64,000 nt of DNA from an uncultured Candidatus Saccharibacteria bacterium (GTDB taxonomy: Bacteria > Patescibacteriota > Minisyncoccia > Phycocordibacterales > JAKAEA01): the NCBI GenBank assembly GCA_964532205.1, contig CAZHGQ010000003.1, positions 4,382 through 68,381 on the forward strand, in the 5' to 3' direction. Position numbers and translations under genes: made by a program. Under the pieces are notes generated by a model, which saw only the letters and a list, made by a program, of their open reading frames with translations, was not told the DNA's origin and ran no database searches. Shown piece by piece: positions 15,801 to 45,108 of the stretch. Every line of letters begins with the position of its first letter. The first letter of the stretch is position 1.

Positions 15801-15836
15801 ATAACAAAGGCCGCGCGTACGCGCGGCCTTTGTTAT
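15801..15836 (+). terminator. Long perfect hairpin ATAACAAAGGCCGCGCG-TAC-CGCGCGGCCTTTGTTAT immediately after rplK
   Basis: A 16-17-bp GC-rich stem read directly. It terminates the secE-nusG-rplK unit in the place where rplA would normally continue. Confidence 0.6.
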
Positions 15837-15942
15837 CCACAAGATACCCACAAATCAATTTTCTTTTGCACGTAATAGTTCTATAATGAGTCAGTATTAA
15901 AACATACCCAAATCTTGTCTCAATTTGGTGTTCAAATATTTT

Positions 15943-16605
15943 ATGGCCTTGCACATTATTAAAAAGAATCTCAAGAGGTCAGTCACAGTATCACTCATTT
16001 TATCCTTGGTAATTTTGACAGGGTATGTCACCTACGAAGGATCGGTGGTCTATGCTGCCTCGGCAAATACGAACGTTGTGGTAACGTTGCAGGTTGATAC
16101 TGGTATTAGTATCACTGCAGACAGTGCTACAAAAGTAATGAGTAATAGTTTGGGCGTCAGTTCTCACACAGCTGTCGCAACTTCGACATTTACAGTGGCA
16201 ACTAACAACGCCATCGGTTATACCTTGGCATTAAATGCCTCGACAAATCCGGCTATGAAGTCGGGTTCAAACTATGTTAGCGATTATGCTACAACAACGA
16301 ACCCAAGTACGTGGTCGGTCGCTTCCGGTGATGCGCGGTTTGGTTTTTCTGCGTTCGGTAATGACGTGAATACTACAACCTGGGGAACTGGTAGTTTCTG
16401 TAACGGTGCTGCTACAAGTACTATTTCGACAACGTTGAAGTATTACGGTTTTTACACAAATGCTACAACTACAGCAACTCGTGCCTCAACAACCACACCC
16501 TCTGGTGTAACAACAACCGTTTGCTACGCTGTACAGCAAAACAACACATATATTCCATCTGGCACATATACAGCCACAATTACTGGTACGGCAACAACGC
16601 TCTAA
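15943..16605 (+). CDS. Secreted Thr-rich beta-rich surface protein, paralog A (WxL-like or pilin-like; family uncertain)
   Basis: Signal anchor, then a TWSVASGD motif. The C-terminus TYTATITGTATTL is shared with the protein at 17611..18363. The ATG at 15943 is preferred over the TTG at 15925. Confidence 0.5.
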   Translation: MALHIIKKNLKRSVTVSLILSLVILTGYVTYEGSVVYAASANTNVVVTLQVDTGISITADSATKVMSNSLGVSSHTAVATSTFTVATNNAIGYTLALNASTNPAMKSGSNYVSDYATTTNPSTWSVASGDARFGFSAFGNDVNTTTWGTGSFCNGAATSTISTTLKYYGFYTNATTTATRASTTTPSGVTTTVCYAVQQNNTYIPSGTYTATITGTATTL

Positions 16606-16615
16606 CACTTACCAT

Positions 16616-17596
16616 ATGAAAAAAACCTTGACCTTGGGCCTGATATGTTCAATCCTGGTCATCCCTCAGGTTGCGGTTTTTGCGCAGGCTCAGAATTCTC
16701 CAAAGTTACGTATTGATACAATTAACGTTGAGGCCAAAAATGACTTCGTGCTTGAACCAGGTAAGGCCCAAATCTTCGTTAATCCAGGCGATACGATTAC
16801 AAAGGAAATTTATATTACAAACCGCGTACCTGGCCAAACCACATTTCGAGTTGAAATTCAGGATATTAAAGGTAGTTCTGATCCAAATCAACCCGTGGTT
16901 ATCTTGGACGGTGAGCGAGGTCCATACTCAGCCAAAGATTTTATTACTGCTAACCCAGGACTATTTACATTGTCATTTGGCCAGCGTCTGACGATTCCGG
17001 TTACAATTACGATTCCTAAAGATACACCACCGGGGGATTACGACTCATCGGTGTTAATTTCGAATTCACCGACTGTGTTAGGTACGTCAACTGACAACAC
17101 AACCACTCAGGGTCAAACACGAATTATTTCTCGACTCGGTACTCTGTTTTTAATCCGAGTTAATGGCGATGCGAATGAAAGTGGTCAGCTTGAAGAATTC
17201 AAATTAGCTGGGCCAAAAAAACTTTTCTATACAAAGGGTCCGTTTACATTCGAAGCGCTTTTCAACAACACTGGTAATGTTCACTTGGTACCGTACGGTA
17301 TGATTACGATTCGAAATATTTTTGGCAAAACTGTGGCTCAAGTACCGGTTGATGCGTATTATTCGTTGCCAAGTTCACTGCGTCATCGTTCTGTTACGTG
17401 GGATGTGTCTATGCTTTTGGGCAGATACAAAGCCACGCTTGAACTGCATCGAGGATACGGCACGGCAGTTGATACAATGGCTGTTTCATTTTGGGTAATT
17501 CCATGGAAGATTCTCTTGGCTGTCTTTGCTGCGGTATTTGTTCTAGCACTTCTGCTTATCATTTTCTTAAACATGTTCGAGTTGCGTCGTAGGTAA
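16616..17596 (+). CDS. Secreted protein with a C-terminal TM anchor and a short basic tail (architecture like DUF916/DUF3324 cell-surface proteins)
   Basis: A cleavable signal peptide (VAVFAQAQN), a beta-rich body, and a C-terminus WKILLAVFAAVFVLALLLIIFLNMFELRRR. Confidence 0.5.
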   Translation: MKKTLTLGLICSILVIPQVAVFAQAQNSPKLRIDTINVEAKNDFVLEPGKAQIFVNPGDTITKEIYITNRVPGQTTFRVEIQDIKGSSDPNQPVVILDGERGPYSAKDFITANPGLFTLSFGQRLTIPVTITIPKDTPPGDYDSSVLISNSPTVLGTSTDNTTTQGQTRIISRLGTLFLIRVNGDANESGQLEEFKLAGPKKLFYTKGPFTFEALFNNTGNVHLVPYGMITIRNIFGKTVAQVPVDAYYSLPSSLRHRSVTWDVSMLLGRYKATLELHRGYGTAVDTMAVSFWVIPWKILLAVFAAVFVLALLLIIFLNMFELRRR

Positions 17597-17610
17597 AAGG
17601 GATTAGGACT

Positions 17611-18363
17611 ATGAATCTTTCTCCCCGAATGATAATTGGAGTTCTCATCTTGCTATTTTGTTTGCCACTTTCGATGATGGCTGCGGTTATGTCGAGCTCA
17701 AATTATAAAATTCAGTCTGACAGCATCAACTTTGGCGGTGGTAGTTCGGCTTCGACAAACTATCTCGGTCAAGATACTTTGGGTGAAATTGGTACTGGTG
17801 ATTCATCGAGTGAAAATTATCGTATGCATGCGGGTTATCAGCAAATGCAGGAAAGTTTTATTTCGCTTTCCGTAACTGGTAATCCAAATTTGGGTAATAT
17901 GGGTGGTATTTCTGGGGGTTCGACGATTGGTTCGACAACCTGGAAAGTTATTACTGATAGTCCGAGCGGTTATCAAATGACTACTCAAGCGGCCACCAGT
18001 CCGGCCATGCAAGGAACGCTCGGAGCCTATTTCTCAGATTACAATCCAGCCGGTGCGCCAACTCCTGATTACACTATGACTGTTGGTTCTGGAGAGTCGG
18101 CTTTCGGTTTTTCACCTGAAGGTACAGACATAATTGCTACGTATCGCGATAATGGTAGCGCTTGCAATACTGGCAGTTCTGATAATACAGATCGATGTTG
18201 GGATGGTTTTAGTACGTCACCAAAAGTAATTTCACAAGGCACAGGCGCCACACTTACCGGTACAGATACCGTGCTTAAGTTTCAAGCCAAGATTGGAAAT
18301 GATAAGATTCAAGATGCACAGTCATATTCTGCGACAATCACTGTGACCGCTGTAACACTTTAG
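17611..18363 (+). CDS. Secreted beta-rich surface protein, paralog C (homologous to 15943..16605)
   Basis: Signal anchor, then a TTWKVITDSP motif. The C-terminus SYSATITVTAVTL aligns with paralog A. Confidence 0.5.
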   Translation: MNLSPRMIIGVLILLFCLPLSMMAAVMSSSNYKIQSDSINFGGGSSASTNYLGQDTLGEIGTGDSSSENYRMHAGYQQMQESFISLSVTGNPNLGNMGGISGGSTIGSTTWKVITDSPSGYQMTTQAATSPAMQGTLGAYFSDYNPAGAPTPDYTMTVGSGESAFGFSPEGTDIIATYRDNGSACNTGSSDNTDRCWDGFSTSPKVISQGTGATLTGTDTVLKFQAKIGNDKIQDAQSYSATITVTAVTL

Positions 18364-18368
18364 TTAGT

Positions 18369-19703
18369 ATGCGAACAATGAGCACAATTCTCACGGTGCT
18401 ACTCCCAGTATTTTTTGGGCTCAGTTTAGCCGTGACACACGCACAGATTCAATCCTCGACAAACCCTGAGGTTATTTTGAGTGTGAAAGGTTGTAACAAT
18501 AACGGTATTTGTGAAGCCGGACTCGGCGAGGATTACTTGATTTGTCCGTTGGATTGTAGCGCACCCGCTACAACGACACCGCCAACCATACCACCACCGA
18601 CAGGGCATGGTGGTAATGGTCAGTTGTTGCCGGCGTTGTACATCACGTCTATCAATCTTGAACAGCATCAGACAAGTGTGAAGGTGACGTGGGAAACATC
18701 AAATACAACCATCTCAAGTATTTTTTGGGGTGCCTTGCCAGATTATGAAATTGGTTCAATTGGTGGCACAGTCTATACCAAAAAACACAGCGTGACCATT
18801 GATGATTTGTCACCAAACACTCGCTACTATCTGCGTATTGACGCCAAAGATTTATATGGACAGGTCATGCAATATTCAGCTTCTTTTTTGACTCTGCCAC
18901 TTTCAACTGATCAAGCACCAGCCAATCCAACATCTGTGACTGTTGCTCCAACTCATGACGGGTTGTTAATCACCTGGGTTAATCCAAGCTCACCAGGTTT
19001 TGATGGCGTGGTCGTTGTTCGCTCGCCGTACAATTTCCCACACGATCCAGCCGACGGCAAAGTTATTTATCAGGGTAGGGGAAGTTACACAACTGATCCA
19101 GAAGGTGTGAGCGATAAAAAATATTTTTATACCATTTTCAGTTACGATGCTCAGGGCCGCTTCTCATCCGGTGTAGTTTTCACAAATCAATTAGCTAGCA
19201 CGACTCCTGACGTGGGCACGCAGTTCGCATTCGATAATTTATTATTCATTCAAGATGGTAAACCACTTAAAATCGTCGACACCTCAGTTACTGCACTCAA
19301 CAGTAGCGACCTCGTTGTGCTCTTGCCAATTGAAAAAATTAATGTTCGAGTGCGAAATGCATTTTTGAGCGTTGAGACACCAACTGGCGTAAATCGCTAC
19401 CTGATGCGATATGTCGAACAGGATGGAGCCTACGAAACTAAGATTAATGCCTACCAATATCCGGTAATGCGATATCCGATTTCGGTACTTATTCAGAGTA
19501 TCAATGACACCTATTACAAGACCTCTGGAAACCTCTATATAGCCAATAGTGAGGTCATTAGGGTGGGTTATGGTCATTATCCAGTCATGGTATTTTACGG
19601 TCTCCTATTACTCATTCTCTTCCTCGGACTATTGGCGCTTTTCACCTGGATTATTAGACGAATCGCTCGTTTAATTGCCTGGTTTAGGAGGTCAAAATCA
19701 TAG
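18369..19703 (+). CDS. Secreted Cys-rich and FN3-like domain protein with a C-terminal TM anchor
   Basis: Signal peptide, then a CNNNGICEAG ... CPLDCS module, a Pro/Thr linker, an FN3-like segment VTVAPTHDGLLITWVNP, and the C-terminal anchor YGLLLLILFLGLLALFTWIIRRIARLIAWFRR. Confidence 0.5.
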   Translation: MRTMSTILTVLLPVFFGLSLAVTHAQIQSSTNPEVILSVKGCNNNGICEAGLGEDYLICPLDCSAPATTTPPTIPPPTGHGGNGQLLPALYITSINLEQHQTSVKVTWETSNTTISSIFWGALPDYEIGSIGGTVYTKKHSVTIDDLSPNTRYYLRIDAKDLYGQVMQYSASFLTLPLSTDQAPANPTSVTVAPTHDGLLITWVNPSSPGFDGVVVVRSPYNFPHDPADGKVIYQGRGSYTTDPEGVSDKKYFYTIFSYDAQGRFSSGVVFTNQLASTTPDVGTQFAFDNLLFIQDGKPLKIVDTSVTALNSSDLVVLLPIEKINVRVRNAFLSVETPTGVNRYLMRYVEQDGAYETKINAYQYPVMRYPISVLIQSINDTYYKTSGNLYIANSEVIRVGYGHYPVMVFYGLLLLILFLGLLALFTWIIRRIARLIAWFRRSKS

Positions 19704-19735
19704 TCTAAAATAGGTCAATTTTTTGCTCAAAAGCT

Positions 19736-19759
19736 TATCCACAGTGGATAGGTTTTTTT
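19736..19759 (+). terminator. Intrinsic terminator TATCCA-CAG-TGGATA followed by a 7-T run
   Basis: Read directly from the sequence, immediately after the 18369..19703 stop. Confidence 0.55.
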
Positions 19760-19863
19760 GAACGTAATTTTATGCCTCACATGATAAAATTAGGGCATAA
19801 AATAAGAGTATCTCGGATGAACGAGGCGGTCGAAAAAACCTCGGTAAACCGATATTTGTATAT

Positions 19864-20235
19864 ATGGAACACCTACATAAATTAATTTCACTTCGTGAGG
19901 CTTCAAACATCTCAGGTTATAACCCTGACTACCTTAGCTCACTCATTCGTTCAGGCAAAATCTACGGTAAAAAGATCGGCAAAAGCTGGTTAACTACCGA
20001 AGACGATATTAGAAAATATTTAAAGGCAAATGGCAACCAAGGTCGAATCTTCCGGGCTAAGTTTCCACGGGTGGCTAAAGTCGGGGCATTACTCCTAGCT
20101 GTGGCAGCATTCGTCGCTGTGACTGTACTGGGTTTTTATGCTGCGGTTTATCAGCGTGGGTATGACCAGGCCAAAAATACCGCTAATGCAAATCAACCAT
20201 TTCAAACATTAGACACCGATCCACTTCGTTATTAA
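19864..20235 (+). CDS. Small helix-turn-helix (excisionase/MerR-like HTH) protein with a C-terminal TM helix
   Basis: ISLREASNISGYNPDYLSSLIRSGKIYGKKIGKSWL is an HTH_17-like motif. It is followed by the hydrophobic segment VGALLLAVAAFVAVTVLGFYAAV. The gene lies 7 nt upstream of the giant gene. Confidence 0.5.
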   Translation: MEHLHKLISLREASNISGYNPDYLSSLIRSGKIYGKKIGKSWLTTEDDIRKYLKANGNQGRIFRAKFPRVAKVGALLLAVAAFVAVTVLGFYAAVYQRGYDQAKNTANANQPFQTLDTDPLRY

Positions 20236-20241
20236 TTTAGG

Positions 20242-23200
20242 ATGAGCGTTTTTCTTGTAAAAAAATCATATTCCCAAAAAATTGCTGCCATTCTGATCAC
20301 GTCAATCTTCACCCAACTCATTTCAGGTTTTTTGGCGCCTTCATACGCTCAGGCGGCTATTAACAAACAAATTAATTATCAGGGTAAACTCACTAACACT
20401 TCAAATGTTGCGGTTACTGATGGTAGCTACAACATGCGATTCAAACTCTACACCTCACTCACTGGTGGTGTGGCAATTTGGACAGAAGATAATTTGGTTA
20501 CAAACGGTCAGGGTGTTCCAGTTACAAACGGTCTCTTCAGTATCATGCTTGGTTCGACAACTGCACTCACGGGTGTTGATTTCAATCAAACACTGTATCT
20601 CGGTGTGACTATCGGTGGCACAAGTGGTACACCGAGCTGGGATAGTGAAATGTCACCACGCAAAATTTTGGGTGCTGTGCCTGCGGCTATGATCGCCGAT
20701 ACATTGCAGGGCTATAATGCGACACAATTCATTCGTTCAGATGCGGCCAACTCAACCTCGACTTCAAACACCTATCTTTCAATTGCTAATACCGGTGCTG
20801 GTAAAGTGGCTGAATTCTTTGGGGCGAGCTCAAATTCTGTTCTGAGTATTTTATCTGGTGGTAATGTGGGTATCGGAACTACAACGCCGGGGTCAAAGTT
20901 ACAAATTGCTGCTGATCAGGCGGGGTTGGCCGACCGCATGCAGGTTACGATCACTGGCGCCACAAATCCTCTAAAAGGGTTAACACTTGGATACGACACG
21001 ACAAATAATATTGGCCACATATATTCTCGTATTGCAGGTTCTGGTCCTTCGGCACTGAGTTTCAACAACGGTCAATTGTACGTAGCTTCTGGAGGAAATG
21101 TGAGCATTGGTACTACATCTCCTTCTACAAAATTACACGTGGTTGGCACAAGCGAGCAGCTCCGACTTGGTTACGATCTGACTAACTACGGAAGCTTCAC
21201 CGTTGCAAGCAACGGTATCATGACTATTCAACCAACGTCCTCACTTTTATTACGTGCAGCCGGCGGTAACTCAGTTCAGCTTGGTATCGCTTCAACAAAC
21301 TATTTTTCATTGAGTAGTTTATATGCCACCTTCTCAACCGTTAGTGTCGGTATTGGTAGTACAACACCAGCTGCACTACTTTCAGTTGCTGGTAACACAT
21401 ACCTCACCGGTGGCTTAGGTGTTGGTACACTGAACACTTCAGCTGGCACACTTGTTACAAGTGGCGGCGCAACAATTGGCGGTTACACTTCAATTTCAAT
21501 CAATGCTGATGCCACATCTGCTAATCAGCAAGTTTTGACAGTGGCGAATAATTTTACAGGTCAAAATGTTGCTTATAATTTTGCGCTTGATAGTTCAAAA
21601 CGTCTTCACTTAAATGGTCAGTCAGGCGGTTCTGCTTTTATGTTCGATAGTAGTGGTGGTGTGAACCGTTTCATTATCCAAAACAATGGTTACGTGGGTA
21701 TTGGTAATAGTGGGCCAGGATATCCATTGGATATTGGTATCGGTGCTGACGCAACAGCTAAGACAGCTGACTTCAGAACATTAAATATTTCTAACACCGC
21801 TACTTCATCATCAAGTTTTACAAAATCGGGCATTCAAATTTCTTCAACTGGTTCATGGACTGGTTCAAATATCGGTTTGTATATCTCCTCAGTTACTGGT
21901 GGTACAAATAATTACGATGCAATTTTTAACGGTGGTGGTAATGTCGGTATTGGTACCACATCACCAGCCACAACTCTCAGTGTCACAGGTAGTGGTTATT
22001 TTACAGGTGGTCTAGGTGTTGGTGTACTCAATACAACGACGGGTACATTACAAACCGCTTCTACTGCAACGTTTGGCGGGCGAGTAATTATAAACACAAC
22101 ACTTACAGATGCGGATTCGGGCAGTCCTGCGATCGATGTAAATGGTGCTCTTTTAAGGATTGGTGATGGTGCTGGTGGTCAGGTATTTGCCAATGGAGTT
22201 GGTATTAAATTTCATGATGGTGGTGTATCTCATGCAAGCATTAAGTATATTTCTGGTTCAAATAACGCAGAGCGCATTGATTTTTGTGGTTCGTCGTCAA
22301 GTGCAAACTTGGCATGTAGTTCAGTGCCAATTTTAAGCATCAGTAATCTTAATAGTGCGGGGGGTGGGAAAATAAGTGTTGGTACAACGAGTGTTTCAAC
22401 ACGTTTCTCTGTTGCTGTAACCGATGACACTGTTGGTATTCAGCAAATCAATAATGCTGGTAACACCACATTCCGCATTCGTAATGCTGGCACTCAAGCT
22501 CGCGGTGAATTGTATTTGGATGATAACGGTTCAAATAAAATTTTCTTCACCGCCAATGGCAGTTCATATTTTAATGGTGGTAGTTTGGGTATTGGCACCA
22601 CCTCACCTTGGAAAGCTCTCTCTGTCTCAGGTGACATGGTCCTCACCGGTGGTCTCTTCGACTCACTCTCGTCGGCTGGTTCAAATGGTATGGTGCTCCA
22701 GTCGACAGGTTCAGCTACAAAATGGGTGGCCACATCAACGTTAGGTTTTGCTTCTGCTACACAAATCGGTTCAGGTCTTCAGGGTCAGATACCGTTCTAC
22801 AACGCTAATGGTTCCAACTTAACCGCAACCTCATCTCTGTTTATTGCGCAGAGTAGTTTTGTTGGGATCGGCACCACTTCACCAGCTTCACTCCTTGCCC
22901 TCGAAGGTACGGGTCAATATTTATTTGATGCCAAAACAACAACTTCAGGTTTCAACGGTCACGTCCGAGTCGAATCTGGTGGTAATGGTACGTACTACAC
23001 TACCGCCTCAGCAGTTTTAACTCTTTCAAATTACACCGACACGCTAAAGTATCGACAATATGTTACTAATGGTAGTAACTTTGTTCTCGAAAATCCTTAT
23101 GGTGGTGCAGTATTGGCAAACGGTGGTTCTTCAAACAATTACACCAGTATTGGTACTTCAACCATCAGTGCTACCACCGCACGTTTGTGGGTAGTGGGCA

Positions 23201-26200
23201 TTGGTAACACGGCAACAACACCAGTTTTTCAAACAAGTGGTGTGAACGGTACGGTTAACTTTACTGTTCAGGGTGATGGTACAGTGGGTATTGGCACAAC
23301 ATCACCATATGCCAAACTTTCAATTGAAAACTCAAATGCAGGCGCAACAGTTGGTGAAGTCATTCATTTAACAACCGGTCACACTGGTTCTACCGTTCTT
23401 GAGCTTCGAACTGCTGGTACTGACAGTGGTAGAAATTTGTTAACTGGTTTTCGTTCAAGCACGGTTAAGACCGTACAAATAGATGCCATGGGTGGTATTA
23501 CGCAATATGACGCTTCAAGTAATATTCGAACATCGTTAAACGGTGGGGAAATAGGAGTTAATTATTTTTTGGATAAAGTTGGCATTGGCACCACATCACC
23601 AACTCATAAATTATTAGTGAGTTCAACTTCGCATAATGATATTTTTGCTCTAGAGCGTATTAGTGCGACACAAGGTAATCGATTTGATTTTAGAATTACC
23701 GCCGATCCAAATGGTGCTAATAATTTAGCCGCACGCTCACTGACAATTATGGCCAACACCTCTGCGGCAGATATTGCTTTGTTGGCTGATCCGGCGGTAA
23801 CAAGTCCACAGTTTGTTTTGAAGGCGAGCGGCAACGTTGGTATCGGCACCACAACTCCAGGCGCAAAACTTTCAATTGCTGGATCAGCTGGTGGCACAAC
23901 ACCGTTGTTTGCAATTTCGACTTCAACATCAGGTTTTGCCACAAACACTGCTTTTTATGTAAACTCAAATGGTTATGTTGGTATCAATGCCACAAACTTG
24001 TCTGATATCTTCACGGTCGGTGGCACAATTTCAAACTTTAGTATTGGCACAAACGGTGGGGTAAAGATTGGTTTCTTATCACAGTTGGTTAATGCCAACA
24101 GTCAGCGATTTACGAACTTTGCCGGCTCAGCCGCAGCTCCTGCGCTCAGTGCCAATGATTCTGGAAACAACACTGGTATTTTCTTTAATACATCATCAGA
24201 TACAATTGGTTTTTCAATCAATGGTAGTGAGGCTGGGCGATTTGATTCAACTGGATACTTTGGAATTGGTACTACATCACCATTTAGTACGCTTTCGGTT
24301 ACTGGCAACGCGTATATTGCAGGTAATCTTACTGCCACTGGCACATTGGCCATAACAAGCAGTGCTACATTCGCCGGCGGCACAATTGTTCTTAATGCTG
24401 ACGGAAGTGCGTCGTTCGCAAATGGTGGTGTTGTGTTAAATACCGATGGTACGATACAAGGATCAAATCTAGATCTTGGAGATGTGGGCTCAATGATTAC
24501 TGCAGCGGGTGCACAATTTGCTTATGGCACTGATCCGACCACACTCGATTACGGTATCAAACTGCTCGATACGGGTGCAATATATGTTTCAAATCAAATC
24601 GAGTTTAATGAATCTGCGGGGTATACCTATATCCGTGCTTCAGGTAGTTCTGTAAGCAATACAGATATACTTACTCTTGGAACTGGACACGGAGGACTTA
24701 ACATTTCAGATGGCGATTTAAACACAGAATATTTTTCAGTTCTCGGTTCTGGTAAAAGTAATCCCGGGTTTATAGGTATTGGCACCACAACCCCATGGAA
24801 AAAATTGTCTATAAGTGGCGACATGGTCCTCACCGGTGGTCTCTTTGACTCACTCTCATCAGCTGGTTCAAATGGTATGGTGCTCCAGTCGACAGGTTCA
24901 GCGACAAGGTGGGTGGCGACATCGACACTTGGTCTCAATGCAAGTCTCGTGGGTACAACAGGTCAAGTTGCATATTTTGATGGTACAAACTCAACGGTTG
25001 GTACATCCTCTATATATATAGGTACATCTGGCCGTGTAGCAATTGGTACAACAACTTTGACTGCAACCGGTTTAACTGTTGTTGGTACCGTGGGCACAGT
25101 CTTTGGTACATATTCAACTGCCAATGTGCCCATCATTACTATTTCAAATGGCAACAGTGAAGCTACACCAGTTGCAAGTATTAACGGCACCAACAGCGGT
25201 GTGACGCTTTACTCAAACTCAGCAACCGCGATGTCATTTAATGTGGGTTCGGCCGCTTCAACGGCTGGTTGGGTTTTCACCAACATGCAGCACGCATTAG
25301 TAAACCGCAGCGTAACCTCAATCACTAATAATGGTTATATTGGTATTGGTACGACAACCCCATATGCTCGTTTAGCAATTTCTGGTAATTCTGCATATAC
25401 ATACACACCAACACTTTTTGCGATTTCATCTTCAACAGCGGCTTTTGCTACAACAACGCATTTTGTAGTGAATGCTGATGGTAAGGTTGGCATTGGTAAC
25501 GATGCGCCATTTTACGCATTAGATGCACGATCGGCGGTAAGTGGTGGCACAATGCTTGTTTGGTCACGCGCTTCGGGATCAACAAACAATAGTGGTATTT
25601 TGATCTCAGCGGCTGACAATTCAGTGACTACAAACAATTATCACAAAGGTGGTATTTTCTTCCAGGGTGATAATACTGGTTTTGGACGTGGTAGTTTGTA
25701 TTTGGTAAATAACGGTACAGGTGATAGTTCCGTGGCAACAGTGGCTGATGCCAAGTTAACAATAAATAGTAGTGGATATGTCGGTATCGGCACCACAACT
25801 CCCGCAACTCGTTTGCAAATAGGGGATCTCAATGGTCAGTATGTGCAGGAGGATAATTCCGATGCTGGTTTCACAATTGGCTACAATAGTGCTGCCAGAA
25901 TACAACTTGCCCGCAATGCCTCAAGTATTTTCGGTGCTGCTTACGCTGCGGTAAACGGTGACGCTGGTATTAAGATCGGTCGAAATGGTGCATACAGTTA
26001 TATTGTCGGTGGTTCAAATCTTTTACTTAACCCTGTAGCCGGCAATGTCGGTATCGGCACCACCTCACCATTTGCTCAATTATCTATCGGCGGAGCAGTG
26101 GGCGGCACAGCAAATTTATTTGCCATCTCAACATCATCTGCGGCATACGCCACCTCAACGGTGTTTGTAATTAATTCTGCTGGTAATGTAACTCTACCTG

Positions 26201-29200
26201 TATCAACACAAACATTTGGTATTGGTGGGGGTACATTGACACAAGGTTCACAATCTAACTCACTAAAAATAAATAACCGCGCAGAAATTGGCGGCTCACT
26301 GGCAATTGGTACCACACTCAACAGTGATTATATGGTCAACATTCTGAATGCTAACTCTGGCAACAAAGTTGCTTTGAGAATTATGGGTATTAGTGGTACG
26401 GCTGATGGTGATTTCATCAAGATATATAGTCAGAACGGTTATACTGCCGGTAAAAATGTATTCAATGTCGACAATCGCGGTAATTTAATAATCGGTGCCT
26501 ATGATGCGATTGATGATCACTCAACTGTACGTAAGGCATTGGTAGATTTGCGACCAATTCTTTCAAGTGATGTTGGACTTACTATCACTGCAACATCGAC
26601 GCAAAATGCTCCACTGTTTGCTTTGTTAAGTTCTGCCGGAGCAACCACTTCTGTCTTTACATCAGCTGGCTGGCTTGGTATTGGTACTACAAGTCCGGCC
26701 GCAAAAATTCACTTAACAACCGCTCTATCGGGTGTAACACCAAATGCAGATGCCGATGAATTCTTTATTGAAAATTCTGGAAACACAGGTTTGACTATTG
26801 GTTCTGGTGTAACTGGTACAGGGAATATTTATTTTGGAGATAGTGGCGCTGCTACTCAGGGCCGAATAACCTACAATCATACAGATGACTATCTTTCTAC
26901 ATATGTAAATAACACTGAAATAACTCGCCAAACTGGTACCGGAGTTTTTAATGTTTTAACAAAACTTACTGTTGGTGTTGGTCTGGGTTCTGGTACTGGT
27001 GTTACAACAATGTATGTAAGTAACGCTGCTTTAGGTGATGTTATTGGTATAACCCTAAAAGGATATGCCGGCCAAACTGTTAATTTACAGGAGTGGCAGA
27101 ATTCATCCGGAACCGCATTGGCTGCAGTAACAGCAAACGGTTCAATCGTTGTTGGTTCAAACAAGATTTTTCTTACGGCCAGTGGCGATTCTTTCTTTGA
27201 TGGTGGTAGTGTGGGTGTTGGCACAACAACGCCTGGTGGAAAATTACACATTCTTGGAACCACAGAGCAACTCAGACTAGGTTACGATGCTTCAAATTAT
27301 TTCTCAACAACCCTTGGTTCAAGTGGTAATGTGACCTGGGATGCTGTCGGAGCTGGTGCATCGTTTACTCTCAATGATGCATTAACTATTAACGCCAATG
27401 CTGGACTAAGCATTAAATATGCTGGTGTTGAAGTTTTGAAAACGACTAAAGGCACGGTGGGTAGTAGGAGTGTTGGTTTGTTTTTGGATAATAAATGGGA
27501 TCAGTCTTGGACACCAATGGTAGTGCGTGGCCATGCCGCTCAGACTGCAGATTTACTTGATTTTATGGATGGTAGTAACAATATTTTGACAAGTATTACC
27601 TCAGCTGGCTGGCTTGGTATTGGTACCAGCTCGCCATATCAAAATCTTTCTGTTGTTGGAAATTCAATGGTTACAGGTACGTCATACTTTATTACTAGTG
27701 GTACATACCTTACCAACTCAGGAAGTGGTCCGCAATTAATGTTGGACAGCGCACGAAATGCATATGTTATGGCTGAAACTTCAGGTAGTTCACTTGAGCT
27801 TAATGCTAACGGTGGCATAACATTTAAAGATAGTGGTACTGTTGGTATGCGTTTGGGTCCTACAAGTGGTGGTATTTCTATTGGTAGCGGTTATGCTTCA
27901 ACAGATCCAGGAAATGGTAGTTTGATATTGTCTGGTAGTTTGGGGATCGGCACCACCTCACCTTGGAAAACTCTCTCAGTCTCAGGTGACATGGTCCTCA
28001 CCGGTGGCCTCTTCGACTCACTCTCATCAGCTGGTTCAAATGGCTATGTTCTTCAGTCAACGGGCTCAGCTACAAAGTGGGTAGCAACTTCGACACTTGG
28101 CTTTGCTTCTGCTACACAGATTGGCTCAGGTCTTCAGGGTCAGATACCGTTCTACAACGCTAATGGTACAGATCTTACAGCAACCTCATCTCTCTTTATT
28201 TCACAAAGTGGCAAAATTGGAATTGGTACAACATCACCAACAGAACTTCTGAGTCTTTCTGGTGGCAATATGAATCTTCAAATTCATAATACCAATGCCA
28301 CACTTAACACCTCTGGTTGGTTCTTGTCTGAAGGGCGTCCTGGTTGTTTCGACGGTTACTTCATGATTGCCACAAGCTCGGCATGTACTGCTACTCCAGC
28401 GTTTTCAATCAGCAACAGCGGTGCTGTGAACTTTGGACTTGGCGTAAGTGTTACAGATGGTCAGGGTTTTAACTCAGGTTCGAGTGGTTCGTTGGCATTC
28501 TACAAACCATTTACAGGTACAACAGAAGGTCAGTTGTATTTCCGTGGTGCAACAAGTGCTGATGCAATCTTTACGGTCCGTGGTTACTATCATAACGGTT
28601 CATGGAATCAGCAGGATATTATGACGTGGCGTGGTGGTACAGCTGGTGCTCGTGTTGGTATCGCTTCGTCAACACCGTGGGGTATGTTGTCTGTGAATCC
28701 CAACGGTATTTCCGGTCCGGCATTTGTAGTCGGTTCTTCTACAGCAACTAATTTAATTGTCACAAATGGTGGAAAGGTTGGTGTCGGTCTTACCAACCCA
28801 ACATCACTCCTAGAAGTCAACGGTTCATTCTCAGCTGTAACGTCAAACATCGGTACGGCACAGGGTACTGTTATCACTGCAAACACAAACTTCCGTGTCT
28901 ATTCATCATACGAAGGCACTGAAACAGCTAACATTGCAGAATACTCAGGCTACTTTGCTTCAGCATACTCGAAAAGGTTTGAGTACAATGCTACCGGTAT
29001 TGGTTTTTATGGTGCTACTCCGATTGCAAAACCAAGTTCAACAACTGATCTTCGACAGGCGCTGATTAACCTTGGACTCTACACCACAGGCGGTGCTACT
29101 CCTCTTAACTTAAATGGGGGAACGTTGTTGTCGGGTACTGCTGGGGTGGGTACATCGACTCCATGGAAAACTCTCTCAGTCTCAGGTGACATGGTCCTCA

Positions 29201-32200
29201 CCGGTGGTCTCTTCGACTCACTCTCATCAGCTGGTTCAAATGGTATGGTGCTCCAGTCGACAGGTTCAGCGACAAAGTGGGTAGCGACTTCAACGCTGGG
29301 TCTTGCTTCTACGCTTGTTGGTACAACTGGTCAAGTTGCATATTTTAACGGCACAAATTCAACAATCGGCACCTCATCAATCTCCATTGGTACTAATGGA
29401 TATGTTGGTGTCGGCACAAGCACGCCACTTTTCAAATTACATATTTCAGATGAAACATCTGCACCAATAGTTGCGATTCAGGGTGTATTCAATAGTGATG
29501 CAATTAGTCCAAAATTGTTTTTGGGTGAAAATTCGAATACAGGTTTCGGTATTCAATATCTCGGTTCAGCAAATCGATTCGACATCTTTAGTATGAATAA
29601 TGGCGCGTGGGCTGTGAACGAAACACCACGTCTATCTATTGCTCGAGATTCTGGCTATGTTGGTATTGGTACAACATCGCCGGGGTATATGCTCTCAGTT
29701 ACTGGCAGTATGTCAGCAGATAATGTTATTGCTTCATACTTCACCTCAACCTCAACAAATGCCACATCAACATTTAAAGGAAATATTATTGGCGGCTATA
29801 CAAATAACGTCTACGCAAGTAATTACTCTATCGCTGTCGGTGATGCCTCAACGGGCGCTGGTTACACATTAGCGGCATCAGGCAATGGTTCGGCCGCCTT
29901 CGGTCGTGTGGTGCCTGTTATTGGATCAGGTGGTGTAATTAGGGCTTCGGGTTCAGGTTCATTTGCAACAGGTGATATAGTTTCTATTACTGGTACTCCA
30001 ACAATCTTGGCTTCAGGTGGTGGTGCTGTTGCTCACGGTCACAACGAAGGTAGTGGTGCGATCACTGCCTCAGGTTCAGGTTCATTTGCAATTGGTTATT
30101 TAAATACTAATAGCATTACCGCTTCAAACACCGGCTCATTTGCCGGCGGTACTGGCGCAAGTGGTAATGTGGTATCGTCTGGCGCTGGCTCATTTGCTTG
30201 GGGTACAAATATTACCGCTTCAAATAGTTATAGTATTGCCTTTGGTTCAGGTTATACCAACGGTACTGCTAGTACGTTCCAGGTTGGCTTCTCATCAACA
30301 CCAACACTGACTGTTAATAGTACATCCGTTGGTATCGGTACTACCACACCATGGAAAAATCTTTCAGTTACAGGTGATATGGTTTTAACTGGTCGCTACT
30401 ATGACTCACTCTCATCAGCTGGTTCAAATGGCTATGTTCTTCAGTCAACGGGCTCAGCTACAAAATGGGTAGCAACATCGACGTTAGGTTTTCTATCATC
30501 GAGTGTGGTCTCAGGTCTTGGCACAAACTATATACCTAAGTGGAATGGTTCAGCATTTGCCGAAAGTCAGTTTTATGACAACGGTTCAAGTGTGGGTCTG
30601 CAAATGACTTCGCCACTACACACCCTAGATATCGGTTACTCTGGATCATATGGTGGATATATGCAGGGTGAAGCAGGTATCTTGGCTATGGGTGAGAGTC
30701 AGATGTCGCTCGGCGCATACGACCCCTTTTCTTCTCCAGTTAACCTGTTAACCCTCAACGGAACCGGCTTGGTCAGCGTAGTTAATGCTGATATGGAACT
30801 CGATGCTGGCCGACGAATGTATTACCGTGGTACCGATCATAATGGCTCTCTGTATTATGCTGGGGAAGGTCCATTTGCCGGCGCTCTTATTTTTGAATCA
30901 TATCCAAGTAATAACGATGGTTGGTTGTTCAAGAATCAAAATGGTGTAAGCATTTTGACACTTAGTGCCGGTGATACAGGTCAGACATTATACACTCCAG
31001 CAAATGTTGGTTTGGGTACCACAACTCCATGGAAAAAACTGTCTATAAGTGGCGACATGGTCCTTACTGGCGGTCTCTTCGATTCACTCTCATCAGCTGG
31101 TTCAAATGGCTATGTTCTTCAGTCAACGGGCTCAGCTACAAAATGGGTAGCAACATCAACGCTAGGTATTACCGCAAGTCTCACCGGTACAACAGGTCAG
31201 GTGGCCTACTTTAATGGTACCAACTCAGCTATTGGTACTTCATCTTTGTTCTTGGCAACGAGTGGTAACGTTGGGGTCGGCACAACATCACCATACGCCA
31301 CACTCTCAATAAACAAATCATCCGCCGCAAACTATGACCGTGTTATTAGTGCAAATATTGCTGGTAAAGAAGTCTTTGGTGTTGGACAGTATGATGCCTC
31401 GTCAAATTCTGCCTTTTACTTTGGTTCATCTGACGGTGTTTCAAATCCATATGTCCGTCTATTTGCTGGTCCAGCTGGCGGTGGAACACTAAGTTTCAAC
31501 GCGTATTTCACCTACTTTAACAGCTCGGCTGGCACGCAGTTTACTGGTGGCCCTGCACAATGGCAGGAAACGGGAACACCGACATCTGCTGCAACTCAGA
31601 AATCATCAAACATAATTGAGTTCAGGTCTGGTGTGTGGAATGGTTCAACAAATGGAAATCATATTCATCAAATTTACAACGCTGTTTCAACAACGGTGAA
31701 CTTACAGGACCGAATAGCGTTTAACTTAAACCGAGCAAATCAGATGGGCGGTACTTCATACGAGGCAATGTCTATCATGTATGACGGTGTAGCAAGTGGT
31801 CGAGTAGGAATTGGATCAACTACGCCATGGGCAAAGTTGTCGGTGAGCGCAATTGCTGCTGATGGTTCAGCGCCGTTGTTTGCGATTGGTTCTTCAACCG
31901 CAACGCAATTTATGATTGACAATACTGGCAAAGTTGGCATCGGTACAACATCGCCATACGCTACACTTTCACTCGGTGCGCCAGCAGGAAGTGAAATGTT
32001 TGCAATAGGTTCTTCAACAACGCCATTTAAGATAGATAAACAGGGAAAGGTAATTATTCGAGCATTGGCGGCGACGGACGGTGTTGGAACTAACGCTCCA
32101 TTCCAAGTACAAAACGAAGGTGGTACGGTCATTGCCTATATCCGTCAAGATGGCGGTATGTATAGTACCTTTATGTCTACAGCGGACAATGCTACGGCTG

Positions 32201-44600: not shown

Positions 44601-45108
44601 CGAACAGTGGCCGACACATATGCAGTTTGATGAAAACATCCTGACAGATATGAATAACGTTCGGGCATTGGTCACCAAGGCTTTGGAATTACGGGCTTCA
44701 GCAGGCCTTAAAATCCGTCAGCCATTGGCCACATTAAAACTGAACCAAAATCTCGACACTGATTTACTCAATATTATTGCTGACGAATTGAATGTTAAAG
44801 AGGTTGTTTTTGATGTCAAAACGGAAGATGTCTGGCTTGATACGACAATTTCTGAAGAATTAAAGCGTGAGGGACAGGCACGAGAGCTCCAGCGCGCAAT
44901 TCAGGATATGCGTAAAGCTGAAAAACTCAATCCAAGTGATTCGATTGTATTGAATGTGCACAGTACTCAGGCGGGTTTGGATCTAGTACATACGTTTAAA
45001 GCAGATCTGATGAAAACCTGTCGCATTACTGAAATAAAAACTGGTGCTTCTGGTCAAAAGGTGGTGATCGATGATTTGGAATTTGATCTGAGCATAGAAC
45101 GTGCCTAA
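41674..45108 (+). CDS. ileS: Isoleucine--tRNA ligase (type 2, eukaryote-like) carrying an in-frame inserted histidine-phosphatase domain at about aa 488-686
   Basis: PPFATGQPHYGHIL is the HIGH motif and WAISRSRYWGAPLPVW and KMSKRLKNYPD (KMSKS) are present. The inserted segment has YFVMRHGE ... LTERGQE ... SPFVRTKETA ... FVTHDG, flanked by canonical IleS sequence (VIGTVADL | DLHRPYIDE..FDTWYESGSMPY). Confidence 0.9.
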   Translation: MAEHKSERALREEAIQEFWREHDIFKKTLRKPSPKGEFVFYDGPPFATGQPHYGHILAGTMKDAIPRYKTMQGYHVPRVWGWDCHGLPIENLVEKELGLKSKKDIEDFGIQKFNEAARAAVLRYDADWKKIVPRTGRFIDMDLAYLTMQPSYSESIWWSFKTLHDKGLIYQGFKSMHLCPHCGTTLSNFEVAQGYKDITDISVYVKFELVDEPGIFVLAWTTTPWTLPGNVALAVKSDIQYVQVEVKGEQIILAKDRLSVIKDEYTVIKEFSGAELVGKTYKPVFPYYKDAELKHKENIWKIVAADFVTTQDGVGVVHIAPGYGEDDYVLSLKEKLPFIQHVGTDGAFKKEVTDFAGEQVKPKDDHQKADVEIIKYLAHHNSLFAKEKLVHSYPHCWRCDTPLLNYATSSWFVEVTKLKDRLVAENKKVHWVPAEIGEGRFGKWLEGARDWAISRSRYWGAPLPVWICADCNQTEVIGTVADLKKKTKRNNYFVMRHGEADHNVANILSSKATNPHHLTERGQETVATMAKALVDKNIDIIIASPFVRTKETADIVVEEIAFKGQVQTDERLAEYDFGDLDGQSIEKYHSYYSSVTERFEKRLPNGENLRDVKQRIGNFLYDIDQKYEGKNILFVTHDGPASMIFAVAEGADDKGMLELWGMDRDFLSPGQEAVLEFSQLPHNGDYSLDLHRPYIDEVTFSCSCGGTMKRVPEVFDTWYESGSMPYSQIHYPFENKDKIDNKLQFPANFIAEGQDQTRGWFYSLLVLSVGLFDQTPYQNVIVNGIVLAEDGQKMSKRLKNYPDVSYVLDKYGADAMRYYMLSSPVVKAEDLAFSERGLDEVVKKLLMRLQNVYTFYETYKAEQKPHHVDSKNVLDRWILARLAELTKTVTESLENYELDRAAKPFMLFVDDLSTWYLRRSRDRFKGEDENDKQSALKTIEHVLRELAKLMAPFMPFVAEDLYQKLKTEKSELSVHLEQWPTHMQFDENILTDMNNVRALVTKALELRASAGLKIRQPLATLKLNQNLDTDLLNIIADELNVKEVVFDVKTEDVWLDTTISEELKREGQARELQRAIQDMRKAEKLNPSDSIVLNVHSTQAGLDLVHTFKADLMKTCRITEIKTGASGQKVVIDDLEFDLSIERA
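43135..43731 (+). other. Histidine-phosphatase (RHG/phosphoglycerate-mutase-fold) domain inserted inside ileS
   Basis: Motifs RHG, a second Arg, a Glu, and His in THDG are all present. There are no intein splice motifs. Confidence 0.7.

Follow-up and report, generated by a model that had tools for sequence, protein, structure and literature searches.

The Pam pilus was described in 2026 by Troman et al. in Candidatus Mycosynbacter amalyticus, a member of the Saccharimonadia, and most of its homologues were reported in Saccharimonadia and Microgenomatia (bioRxiv 10.64898/2026.03.03.709456). In the same work an association of ATP synthase genes with pam operons was reported, as was a tail fibre-like protein that co-localises with these operons and is central in pam neighbourhoods. 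The WxL/Csc clusters of Firmicutes encode a WxL-interacting protein (WxLIP) made up of DUF916, DUF3324 and a membrane helix (PMC10599100; PDB 9i25, 9i1y), whose hairpin was predicted with AF2 to complete the WxL sandwich, while the WxL proteins have been described as wall-bound monomers and not as fibres (PMC10599100). Here we describe a locus of an ultra-small CPR bacterium whose four genes, with a probability that we put at about 0.6, form a minimal operon for a surface pilus of the Pam kind known from CPR, assembled with a chaperone and without an usher; its product is most likely a thin surface filament.

Results

Within the window (the whole 64-kb stretch of DNA that was analysed), positions 15943-19703 are occupied by four tightly packed ORFs, and the four-gene module that the first-pass annotation had placed there was recovered with the same limits. 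Genes A (15943-16605, 220 aa, with an alternative TTG start at 15925), B (16616-17596, 326 aa), C (17611-18363, 250 aa) and D (18369-19703, 444 aa) all lie on the + strand, are separated by 10, 14 and 5 nt, and encode products that each begin with a hydrophobic signal segment (4/4). The upstream boundary of the unit is a terminator-like hairpin 3' of rplK (15801-15836, + strand), for which RNA folding gave a 16-bp stem with a dG of -29.2 kcal/mol (z=-7.5 against shuffles). The downstream boundary is likewise terminator-like, a hairpin with a U7 tail 3' of D (19727-19761, + strand; dG -13.4 kcal/mol, z=-3.7) that no shuffle folded as well as; a consensus scan flagged neither this hairpin nor a TATAAT hexamer read by eye at 15882-15887. 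With strong hairpins at both ends, A-D is a separate unit.

Related loci of Patescibacteria retained the order A-B-C-D in 63-75 of 65-75 cases, which is beyond chance (80 related loci). A pilin gene lay upstream of B at all 75 of 75 loci and C downstream of B at 74 of 75, D was present in order at 63 of 65, and the A-type gene occurred in one to three copies per locus. All named relatives were Patescibacteria, of the Parcubacteria group (Nomurabacteria, Taylorbacteria, Paceibacterota). This conserved order bears out the earlier view of a dedicated surface-assembly module.

The module had also been placed directly upstream of a giant fibre gene. The giant gene is indeed nearby, but gene E (19864-20235, + strand) intervenes, lying between D and the giant gene F and ending 6 nt upstream of the latter. 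E encodes 123 aa with an excisionase-like HTH_17 domain (Pfam, E=5.6e-6) and one membrane helix (hydrophobic segment 73-91); it occurs at 26 of the 49 related loci and so counts as a conserved neighbour, whose membership in the pilus would be putative. Gene F (20242-34482, + strand) encodes a tail-fibre-like protein of 4746 aa with a signal peptide, a Peptidase_S74 intramolecular-chaperone domain near the C-terminus (E=6.6e-12) and an N-terminus weakly matching the Bdellovibrio fibre Bd2133 (8ond, E=0.0067). As had been proposed for checking, co-occurrence with giant fibre genes was sought in relatives, and in 40 of 49 loci the module was followed downstream by a homologue of the F N-terminus. 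F is a conserved neighbour, and any functional link to A-D is putative.

Such a link might mean that A-D are no independent pilus and instead hold F on the cell, as a basal platform or an aid to its export, as the conservation of the F N-terminus directly downstream and the central place of a tail fibre-like protein in pam neighbourhoods (bioRxiv 10.64898/2026.03.03.709456) would allow. We consider this very unlikely, since the terminator-like hairpins bound A-D, 160 nt separate A-D from E-F, and 9 of the 49 loci had no F downstream. Moreover, F brings a signal peptide and a self-chaperoning domain of its own, and it contains no segment resembling the donor strands of A and D or the pilin domain: the A and C queries matched only at the A and C genes and nowhere inside F. 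Under the Pam-type reading, F would probably be a second, co-regulated host-attachment device and not a pilus subunit.

Gene B (16616-17596) encodes a predicted membrane-anchored, two-domain chaperone-like protein with a PapD-like fold, related to WxLIP. A signal peptide is followed by a first beta-sandwich (32-150), a flexible Thr-rich loop (151-172), a second beta-sandwich (173-294), a membrane helix at 297-325 (hydrophobic stretch 299-317) and the terminal ELRRR. When its AF2 model (pLDDT 91) was compared with the PDB using Foldseek, the E. faecium WxLIP came first (9i25_C and 9i1y, E=5e-12), followed by RbmA (4e-10) and then by the chaperones CfaA, CsuC, Caf1M and FimC (3.5e-9 to 1e-6). 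The B-family profile matched EfmWxLIP1 among PDB sequences (E=6e-5), aligning the low-confidence loop 151-172 with the WxLIP hairpin; PF06030 was found in 4 of 82 family members (best 1.4e-8), and hhalign against eight genuine WxLIPs gave probabilities of 87-94% (E=4e-6 to 9e-8). The earlier description of B as a DUF916/DUF3324-like protein with a signal peptide, a TM helix and a terminal RRR agrees with the WxLIP at the top of the Foldseek matches and with the PF06030 hits, and by profile and model B can be regarded as a remote homologue of WxLIP.

WxLIPs are currently read as 1:1 stabilisers of WxL proteins and not as assembly chaperones. The module might accordingly be a non-polymerising complex of the WxL-cluster kind, in which a membrane-bound, WxLIP-like B would stabilise A and C one-to-one by completing their beta-sandwich, as proposed for the WxLIP-WxL pairs of Firmicutes; no fibre would form and D would be a separate anchored adhesin. 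This explanation draws on B having its closest relatives, in structure and in sequence, among genuine WxLIPs, on a gene order as in the Firmicute clusters compared, where the WxLIP-like protein stands between a small subunit and a larger one, and on three co-linear motif resemblances between A/C and WxL domains, among them GYTL vs GWxL and, C-terminally, GxYxATIT vs GxYxxTLTW.

The subunits themselves argue against it. A and C were 32% identical over 144 aa by BLASTP (E=3e-12), and their family profiles aligned with 99.9% probability (hhalign, E=1.3e-33), residues 53-220 of A on 82-250 of C; at sequence level a 165-aa C-terminal beta domain is thus common to both. The paralogy and the C-termini noted earlier (...YTATITGTATTL and ...YSATITVTAVTL) stand, and A is 21% Thr; in C the abundant residues are Ser, Gly and Thr. 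The pairing of TWSVASGD with TWKVITDSP as homologous motifs was rejected, as the alignments place TWKVITDSP of C opposite TFTVATNNA of A. Among 182 members of the A and C families none matched PF13731 (WxL) at E<=0.1, whereas real WxL proteins, as a positive control, scored 1e-10 to 1e-57 in the same test. Alignment of A/C with WxL by hhalign gave at most 1% probability, Trp-x-Leu is absent from A and from C, and no LPXTG partner is present at the module. A and C thus failed every statistical test applied for the WxL domain and are not detectable as such, and of the proposed likeness to a WxL locus the part on B is supported. A complex of this kind would also have to accommodate C as a PamT homologue (see below), would give no role to the N-terminal strands of A and D or to the lack of such a strand in C, and fits poorly with the multiple A copies per locus, which resemble multi-pilin operons. 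On balance we regard it as rather unlikely.

Returning to the Pam-type pilus, gene A (15943-16605) would encode its shaft subunit, a secreted, Thr-rich, single-domain pilin-like protein. Its signal peptide is followed by a mature N-terminal beta-strand, NVVVTLQVD, and by the pilin-like domain; PamA and PamB are defined by an N-terminal beta-sandwich domain, which A lacks. The strand is a putative donor strand: it is unpaired in the AF2 monomer model (pLDDT 93) and is among the most conserved parts of A, with V45, T48, L49, V51 and G54 invariant or nearly so in 101 homologues. A matched NCBIfam NF058581 (CPR_Pam_pilin_C) over its whole length, at residues 73-218, with E=1.2e-3 and 19 bits against a cut-off of 55, and 4 of 101 family members matched it, at best with 3.2e-6. 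The top PDB matches of the model by Foldseek were TasA (8aur), PapE (1n12), the pilin domain of PapG (3me0_B and 2wmp_B) and CsuA/B (6fqa_D), with PapA, FimF and FimG as further neighbours; the matches to pilins are weak (E>=5e-3, TM 0.3-0.55). All these neighbours, from TasA to the Pap, Csu and Fim proteins, are subunits of fibres that assemble through donor-strand exchange.

TasA was the single best of these matches (E=4.9e-3) and chaperone-usher chaperones match B, so that membership in a classical chaperone-usher/SCPU, sortase or TasA/SipW fibre system was also weighed; we hold it to be extremely unlikely. An usher gene is missing, and CPR cells lack an outer membrane; no family member matched PapD_N, PapD_C or SCPU in Pfam, and the A and C families in particular gave no match to PF05229. 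Neither a sortase, an LPXTG motif nor an isopeptide domain was found, the operon encodes no SipW-type peptidase, and a membrane chaperone of two domains plays no part in TasA fibres. The alternative once offered of a pilin-like, spore-coat-U-like family is closer to the truth than the WxL reading, in its pilin-like part (C is a PamT homologue and A matches fibre subunits) and not in its SCPU part.

Gene C (17611-18363) encodes a PamT-like putative tip subunit, in which the signal peptide is followed by 55 aa bearing three SxNY repeats and then by the pilin-like domain seen in A. The SxNY region stands where A has its donor strand, and C is without such a strand. C matched NCBIfam NF058579 (CPR_pilus_PamT) with E=8.1e-14 over residues 8-131, confined to its N-terminal half, at 51.6 bits where the equivalog cut-off is 240; the model matched 80 of 81 family members (best 2.6e-17), and C is distantly homologous to PamT, the tip pilin of CPR. 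Relatives of C carry Laminin_G_3 or DUF2341 domains either fused to the N-terminal region or inserted within it, as in tip adhesins, which points to a tip role for C. The scores of A and C lie far below the curated NCBIfam cut-offs, and A-D are therefore annotated as hypothetical by current pipelines.

Gene D (18369-19703) encodes a PamR-like putative terminator and membrane anchor. Its signal peptide is followed by a conserved strand (EVILSVKG), a 4-Cys knot (CNNNGICE...CPLDC), a Pro/Thr linker, two FN3 domains, a variable domain, a membrane segment (hydrophobic 399-417) and a basic tail. Pfam fn3 and Pur_ac_phosph_N matches were found (fn3 in 29 of 41 family members), and the family profile matched tandem-FN3 PDB chains such as neogenin (2e-14) in 2-3 stretches. 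The four Cys, the FN3 matches and the C-terminal hydrophobic segment confirm the anchored, Cys-rich FN3 protein described before. The mature N-terminus of the family is conserved as (I/V)x(V/I)xLxVxGCNNN, and the N-terminal strands of A and D have a (V/I)x(V/I)xLxV pattern in common.

Discussion

The analysis shows which genes A-D comprise, what they are homologous to, how their products are predicted to fold and that their synteny is conserved; from this we infer polymerisation, subunit order and strand exchange as follows. All four proteins would be exported by Sec, and B, held in the membrane by its C-terminal helix, might act like PapD/FimC or as a WxLIP-like chaperone, its loop and the strand at the end of domain 1 (about 151-182) filling the open groove that A and C, their beta-sandwich being incomplete, would expose on export. 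Since C has a groove, no donor strand and an N-terminal SxNY region (lectin-type domains in relatives), it would start the fibre as distal tip or adhesin. Copies of A would then join from the base, each inserting NVVVTLQVD into the groove of the preceding subunit and displacing B by donor-strand exchange, until D, which has a similar strand, no groove and a membrane anchor, would cap the last A and tie the fibre to the membrane.

Of the known systems, the chaperone-usher pili of Gram-negative bacteria (Pap, Fim, Csu, CFA/I, Caf1) differ from the module in having an usher and an outer membrane; here the chaperone is membrane-anchored, PapD_N, PapD_C or SCPU membership is absent at sequence level, and the putative terminator D is an FN3 membrane protein and not a pilin. 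They resemble it in the two-domain Ig-like fold of B, in the likeness of the A model to incomplete Ig-like pilins (PapE, the PapG pilin domain, CsuA/B) and in the logic of tip adhesin, shaft and terminator. The A/C subunits end exactly at the last strand, and a Gly that lies 14 residues before their C-terminus is conserved, which would parallel chaperone-usher pilins.

With WxL/Csc clusters the module has in common a B protein that matches WxLIP over both domains, with the same membrane-anchor topology and a flexible loop after domain 1 placed as the WxLIP hairpin, a similar succession of genes, from a small subunit through the WxLIP-like protein to a larger, modular subunit, and large variants that combine binding domains at the N-terminus with an assembly domain at the C-terminus. 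It differs in that A and C are not detectable as WxL and carry no Trp-x-Leu motifs, in having a membrane-anchored FN3 protein instead of an LPXTG protein, and in a CPR host instead of Firmicutes. The relation of a Pam-like assembly helper to Gram-positive WxL-interacting proteins is a lead.

The Pam comparison was made for A and C through NF058581 and NF058579, and for B and D through the published descriptions of PamC, PamD and PamR; B, D and their families matched no Pam-specific model. The module has four genes, with one chaperone against PamC and PamD, and one pilin type against PamA, PamB and PamE; A is single-domain with an N-terminal donor strand and lacks the nine-strand N-terminal domain of PamA/PamB, and the 64-kb window holds no ATP synthase genes. 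Its relatives belong to the Parcubacteria group and not to Saccharimonadia or Microgenomatia, which would place a Pam-like variant in Parcubacteria, where its genes are hypothetical in annotations everywhere. Both systems occur only in CPR bacteria, have Sec-exported components, do without an usher and have a tail-fibre-like neighbour; the putative tip protein C is homologous to PamT, A weakly matches the Pam pilin C-domain, B has the two beta-sandwiches and C-terminal membrane helix described for PamC/PamD, and D, like PamR as described, is FN3-rich and membrane-anchored and carries an extra N-terminal strand.

Organization of the locus

A four-gene cell-surface module had been proposed at 15943-19703 in the first-pass annotation, and this description was borne out, with three corrections, by the open reading frames and by the topology of their products. 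The four genes are packed on the + strand as A (15943-16605, 220 aa), B (16616-17596, 326 aa), C (17611-18363, 250 aa) and D (18369-19703, 444 aa), with intergenic gaps of 10, 14 and 5 nt (A/B, B/C and C/D). An N-terminal hydrophobic signal segment is common to all four proteins, and in B and D a C-terminal hydrophobic segment is followed by basic residues. The module is preceded by secE-nusG-rplK. Since a 16-bp hairpin lies directly 3' of rplK (15801-15836; RNA fold dG -29.2, z=-7.5) and a second hairpin, with a U7 tail, directly 3' of D (19727-19761; z=-3.7), A-D look like one transcription unit that is set apart transcriptionally from the genes E and F that follow. The unit boundaries were taken from direct sequence reading and RNA folding, as a sigma-70 and terminator consensus scan gave matches no better than shuffles.

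Gene E (19864-20235, +, 123 aa) begins after a gap of 160 nt and codes for an excisionase-like HTH_17 protein with a single membrane helix. It ends 6 nt upstream of gene F (20242-34482, +, 4746 aa), which codes for a giant tail-fiber-like protein with a Peptidase_S74 tail-fiber chaperone domain near its C-terminus. The module had been placed directly upstream of this giant gene; it does lie upstream, but E sits between D and F, and may regulate the fiber gene as a membrane-tethered protein. Approximately 360 residues of F extend beyond the Peptidase_S74 domain. The N-terminus is the part of F that is conserved among loci (35-65% identity), and its first 400 aa have a weak match to the Bdellovibrio fiber protein Bd2133 (8ond, E=0.0067).

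Elsewhere in the window, a histidine-phosphatase domain (His_Phos_1, E=1e-31) occupies residues 493-656 of an IleRS-like class I aminoacyl-tRNA synthetase (41674-45108, +, 1144 aa), an unusual fusion in which the insertion splits the tRNA-synt_1 catalytic match in two. Further predicted surface proteins are a Ser/Thr-rich protein (60572-62374, +, 600 aa), in which a peptidoglycan-binding-like repeat was seen by eye at the N-terminus, a DUF11/NPCBM_assoc protein (45718-47604, +, 628 aa) located between aminoacyl-tRNA synthetase genes, and a partial Ig-like protein with a membrane anchor (49-972, +).

A and C share a pilin-like domain

A and C were found to be 32% identical over 144 residues (BLASTP, E=3e-12), and the profiles of their families, based on alignments of 101 and 81 sequences (A3 and A2), aligned residues 53-220 of A onto 82-250 of C with an hhalign probability of 99.9% (E=1.3e-33). 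Judged by these comparisons, A and C are paralogs with differing N-termini and a common domain of 165 aa. The motifs TWSVASGD and TWKVITDSP, which had been paired between the two proteins, do not align by BLASTP or in the profile alignments and are not homologous. Upstream of the common domain A has a short mature segment, ASANTNVVVTLQVD, and only about 14 residues, a putative donor strand, lie between its signal peptide and that domain. Within this N-terminal strand V45, T48, L49 and V51 (alternating hydrophobic positions), together with G54, are invariant or nearly so, and in the AF2 monomer model (pLDDT 93) the conserved strand is unpaired.

When the model of A was compared with the PDB by Foldseek it had no strong neighbor; its best matches, which were weak, were mostly subunits of donor-strand fibers. 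The top match was the TasA fiber 8aur (E=4.9e-3, TM 0.30), and further matches were PapE 1n12, CsuA/B 6fqa_D, PapA, FimF, FimG and the pilin domain of PapG (3me0_B and 2wmp_B, probability 0.97-0.98). A also gave a match of 19 bits (E=1.2e-3, model positions 13-145 of 148), below the curated cut-off of 55 bits, to NF058581, 'Pam pilus system pilin subunit', which models the C-domain of the pilins of Pam, a pilus system of the CPR; the same model was matched by 4 of the 101 A-family members (best 3.2e-6). In its predicted fold A looks like an incomplete-Ig fiber subunit and not like a WxL domain.

The earlier suggestion that A and C are WxL proteins did not hold. PF13731 was matched at E<=0.1 by neither A nor C nor any of 182 family members, in a test that gives 1e-10 to 1e-57 for real WxL proteins. 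The A and C family profiles gave no WxL match among PDB sequences, hhalign gave probabilities of <=1% both for an alignment of 12 WxL sequences and for individual WxL proteins, and no WxL chain was present among the top 50 Foldseek matches of the A model. Direct reading of A and C likewise found no W-x-L motif. Membership of the WxL family was rejected on the failure of the Pfam, PDB-sequence and hhalign tests, and the likeness that is left consists of co-linear motifs only, such as GYTLALNAST of A and GYTITANAST of a CscB-like protein from Lactiplantibacillus plantarum. Membership of the SCPU family (PF05229) was rejected as well, as no match was found in A and C singly or in the 182 family members. 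The more general alternative of a pilin-like subunit fared better, with C matching the pilus protein PamT and the A model being nearest, if weakly, to donor-strand fiber subunits.

C as a putative tip and D as a putative anchor

In C the common domain is preceded by a stretch of 55 aa that contains three SxNY repeats. Residues 8-131 only of C matched NF058579, 'CPR-type pilus protein PamT' (E=8.1e-14, 51.6 bits), as did 80 of the 81 C-family members (best 2.6e-17). By sequence C is a clear remote homolog of PamT, far below the equivalog cut-off of 240 bits. Because their scores are far below 240 and 55 bits, respectively, C and A are distant relatives of the Pam proteins and not equivalogs. 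Large pilin-domain proteins (365-970 aa) from an exhaustive profile search are of the C type, with an N-terminal Laminin_G_3 (6/15) or DUF2341 (5/15) domain, which in terms of domain content is the architecture of tip adhesins.

C-type proteins with the concanavalin-like Laminin_G_3 or DUF2341 domain were found at L075:10914-12317, L056:1521-3044, L079:4337-5731 and L079:5899-7758 and in the listed proteins P0226 and P0406, the extra domain being either an N-terminal fusion or an insertion within the SxNY region; locus L079 carries a tandem array of several C-type genes. One of the 15 large proteins with a C-terminal pilin domain (alignment A5) also matches Pfam WxLIP_PGBD (DUF916) at E=4e-5; it may represent a fused chaperone and pilin, or else a gene call that merged two genes. 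The only match of the C-family profile among PDB sequences was a weak one to BtpiA (9jdi_C, E=0.54), in which WTINADRNLGYSLQLENPT lies opposite the conserved C-family motif WTVTTDNAAGYSLSIKAST; a literature search for BtpiA found no paper.

The mature N-terminus of D is a strand, (I/V)x(V/I)xLxV, that is conserved in 41-68 homologs from related loci and has the pattern of the A strand. After it come GCNNNGICE..GE..SCP.DC, a pair of FN3 domains, a variable domain and a membrane segment. Pfam fn3 was detected in 29 of 41 D-family members, and the D-family profile matches tandem-FN3 PDB chains at 2e-14.

B as a chaperone-like protein related to WxLIP

The AF2 model of B (pLDDT 91, pTM 0.79) has a signal helix, a beta-sandwich (32-150), a Thr-rich loop of low confidence (151-172), a second beta-sandwich (173-294) and a helix (297-325). 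Its top Foldseek match in the PDB was 9i25_C, 'WxLIP from Enterococcus faecium locus A bound to long WxL' (E=5.3e-12), with 9i1y second (E=7.5e-12). RbmA was next in rank (~4e-10), and then chaperone-usher chaperones at 3.5e-9 to 1e-6, among others CfaA (3.5e-9), CsuC (2e-8), Caf1M (1e-7) and FimC (2e-7). The proposal that the module contains a DUF916/DUF3324-like membrane protein was supported for B, as remote homology, by structure, profile, Pfam family and hhalign comparisons. Among PDB sequences the B-family profile matched EfmWxLIP1 (E=6e-5), and 4 of 82 B-family members matched PF06030, WxLIP_PGBD or DUF916 (best 1.4e-8), the window's own B being below Pfam detection for this family. Against eight genuine WxLIPs from Firmicute plasmids the B family aligned with an hhalign probability of 94% (E=9e-8), and, once signal peptides and membrane helices had been removed, of 87% (E=4e-6) with 218 co-linear columns covering both domains; overall the alignments had 87-94% probability across 151-218 columns. 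B is at least as close to the Firmicute WxLIP as to any other solved structure.

In WxLIP a disordered hairpin loop was predicted by AF2 to turn into a strand closing a gap in the WxL beta-sandwich, in a study that does not use the term 'chaperone' (PMC10599100). In the profile alignment to EfmWxLIP1, loop 151-172 of B aligns with this hairpin segment. As modeled, such strand filling is the behavior of a donor-strand-complementing chaperone.

The main rival to a fiber is that the module forms a 1:1 surface complex without polymerization, as in WxL clusters. Like the WxLIPs of WxL/Csc clusters, B has, remotely, the layout of DUF916 (PF06030), DUF3324 (PF11797) and a C-terminal membrane helix. 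In contrast to those clusters, A and C are without the WxL domain, which there provides two Trp-x-Leu motifs in small and large subunits, and A-E are without the small LPXTG-anchored partner; the partner was present in the Firmicute WxL clusters fetched for comparison, and no LPXTG motif was found in A-E. We consider such a complex unlikely.

Conservation of the module

When species-representative genomes were scanned with the B profile, 305 matches were confirmed, and 80 loci were kept. All 80 are on Patescibacteria contigs (Nomurabacteria, Taylorbacteria, Paceibacterota, Parcubacteria), a few of them with odd labels, and all named relatives of the module are Patescibacteria; Nomurabacteria fall within the Parcubacteria group by NCBI lineage. 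The odd record titles, on module-bearing contigs L031, L048, L062 and L074, are Burkholderiales, Bdellovibrionales, 'archaeon' and Nanoarchaeia MAGs and likely reflect mis-binning or mislabeling; if they were true, the module would have spread horizontally outside the CPR.

Counted in those loci whose flanks allow, a pilin-like gene is directly upstream of B in 75/75, a C-type gene is downstream in 74/75 and D is present in 63/65, so that the order A/B/C/D is kept in relatives and the module is conserved. Some loci have two or three copies of A; E occurs in 26 of 49 loci. Co-occurrence with giant fiber genes was also seen, the conserved N-terminus of F being present downstream in 40 of 49 loci. 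A role of A-D as an accessory to the giant fiber is judged less likely than a 1:1 complex, given the transcriptional separation of A-D from E-F and the lack of F in the other 9 loci. In an exhaustive profile search the pilin domain was found in 755 clusters at 50% identity, 527 of them at E<=1e-10, and in nearly all of the best 150 of the 755 matches it is at the extreme C-terminus.

A model for assembly

Most likely, A-D make up a chaperone-assisted scheme with C as tip, A as shaft and D as anchor. The scheme builds on the gene content, homologies, folds and synteny of A-D, which are established, and adds polymerization, subunit order and strand exchange, which we infer. All four proteins would be exported by Sec, and B, the membrane-tethered chaperone, would cap A and C at their open groove. 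C, which is without a donor strand and has adhesin domains in relatives, would nucleate the distal tip. A subunits would then join at the base, the N-terminal strand of each entering the groove of the preceding subunit, and D, having a donor strand and a membrane anchor and no groove, would terminate and tether the fiber.

Significance

A lifestyle of attachment to host cells is assumed for CPR bacteria (Patescibacteria), and to our knowledge the first CPR-specific filament described was the Pam pilus. The 305 genome matches and 755 pilin-domain clusters indicate that a much simpler relative of Pam is widespread in the Parcubacteria group. The module is invisible to current annotation, because every source calls its proteins hypothetical. 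Its four genes offer a compact test system for usher-less donor-strand assembly, and the lectin-bearing tip variants suggest possible determinants of host range. Furthermore, the homology of B to WxLIP ties the module to the WxL cluster of Gram-positive bacteria, a virulence-associated cluster present in enterococci, listeriae and lactobacilli whose mechanism is still debated.

Comparison with known systems

Several known fiber systems were rejected on gene content. For classical chaperone-usher pili the likeness is at the fold level only, with B resembling the chaperones and A the pilins by Foldseek; the operon has no usher-sized gene, and PapD_N, PapD_C and SCPU were not matched by any family member. 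Sortase-assembled pili were rejected since no LPXTG pilins, pilin-specific sortase or isopeptide domains were found in the operon or the conserved neighborhood. TasA/SipW fibers, in which a TasA/camelysin-fold subunit is processed by a dedicated SipW signal peptidase, are judged unlikely from the content of the operon, where no peptidase gene was seen, though TasA was the top structural match, a weak one, of A.

It is conceivable, if rather doubtful, that the B family bridges by sequence and structure the WxL/WxLIP (Csc) clusters of Firmicutes, the CPR Pam pili and the chaperone-usher pili of Gram-negative bacteria, which until now have been regarded as separate, the three sharing one strand-complementation mechanism, whether by descent or by convergence. 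A two-domain Ig-like chaperone would then lend a strand to an incomplete beta-sandwich subunit, and would be membrane-anchored where there is a single membrane. If this were true, the Parcubacterial operon of tip, shaft, chaperone and anchor would be the simplest known usher-less form, and WxL clusters might build short fibers and not only 1:1 complexes. The WxLIP-Pam connection is absent from both the 2023 WxLIP paper (PMC10599100) and the Pam preprint, which does not mention WxL (bioRxiv 10.64898/2026.03.03.709456). A literature search with the term WxLIP gave no other paper concerning the CPR.

The closest comparison is with Pam itself, for which cryo-EM structures of PamA and PamB filaments from Ca. 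Mycosynbacter amalyticus were described and PDB entries 25PZ and 25QA named (bioRxiv 10.64898/2026.03.03.709456). Neither entry was among the PDB matches of the A and C family profiles or of the A model. Pam pilins have two domains, a nine-strand N-terminal beta-sandwich and a C-terminal truncated Ig-like acceptor domain that is immediately preceded by a highly conserved linker donor strand, and are joined by donor-strand exchange (bioRxiv 10.64898/2026.03.03.709456). Unlike these, A has no nine-strand N-terminal domain and so is not a two-domain pilin, and the scores of A and C are below all curated NCBIfam cut-offs. Homologs of Pam were reported mainly from Saccharimonadia and Microgenomatia, and ATP synthase genes were found near pam operons (bioRxiv 10.64898/2026.03.03.709456); relatives of the present module belong to another CPR lineage, the Parcubacteria group, and there are no ATP synthase genes within the 64-kb window. 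PamC and PamD are PapD/FimC-like chaperones that a C-terminal helix keeps in the membrane, and PamT is a single-domain tip without a donor strand (bioRxiv 10.64898/2026.03.03.709456); B, compared by description, is PapD/FimC-like with a C-terminal membrane helix. PamR, the proposed terminator and anchor of the pilus, combines RbmA-like tandem FN3 domains with an additional N-terminal strand and a membrane helix at the C-terminus (bioRxiv 10.64898/2026.03.03.709456), and D has the same layout of tandem FN3, membrane segment and N-terminal strand, a match in architecture only. Pam also is without an usher, is restricted to the CPR and has a co-localized tail fiber-like protein (bioRxiv 10.64898/2026.03.03.709456); in the present case F is found downstream of the module in 40 of 49 loci, and the named relatives are all Patescibacteria. 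As known here from genes and predicted folds, the A-D locus probably works like the Pam pilus, to which it is distantly related.
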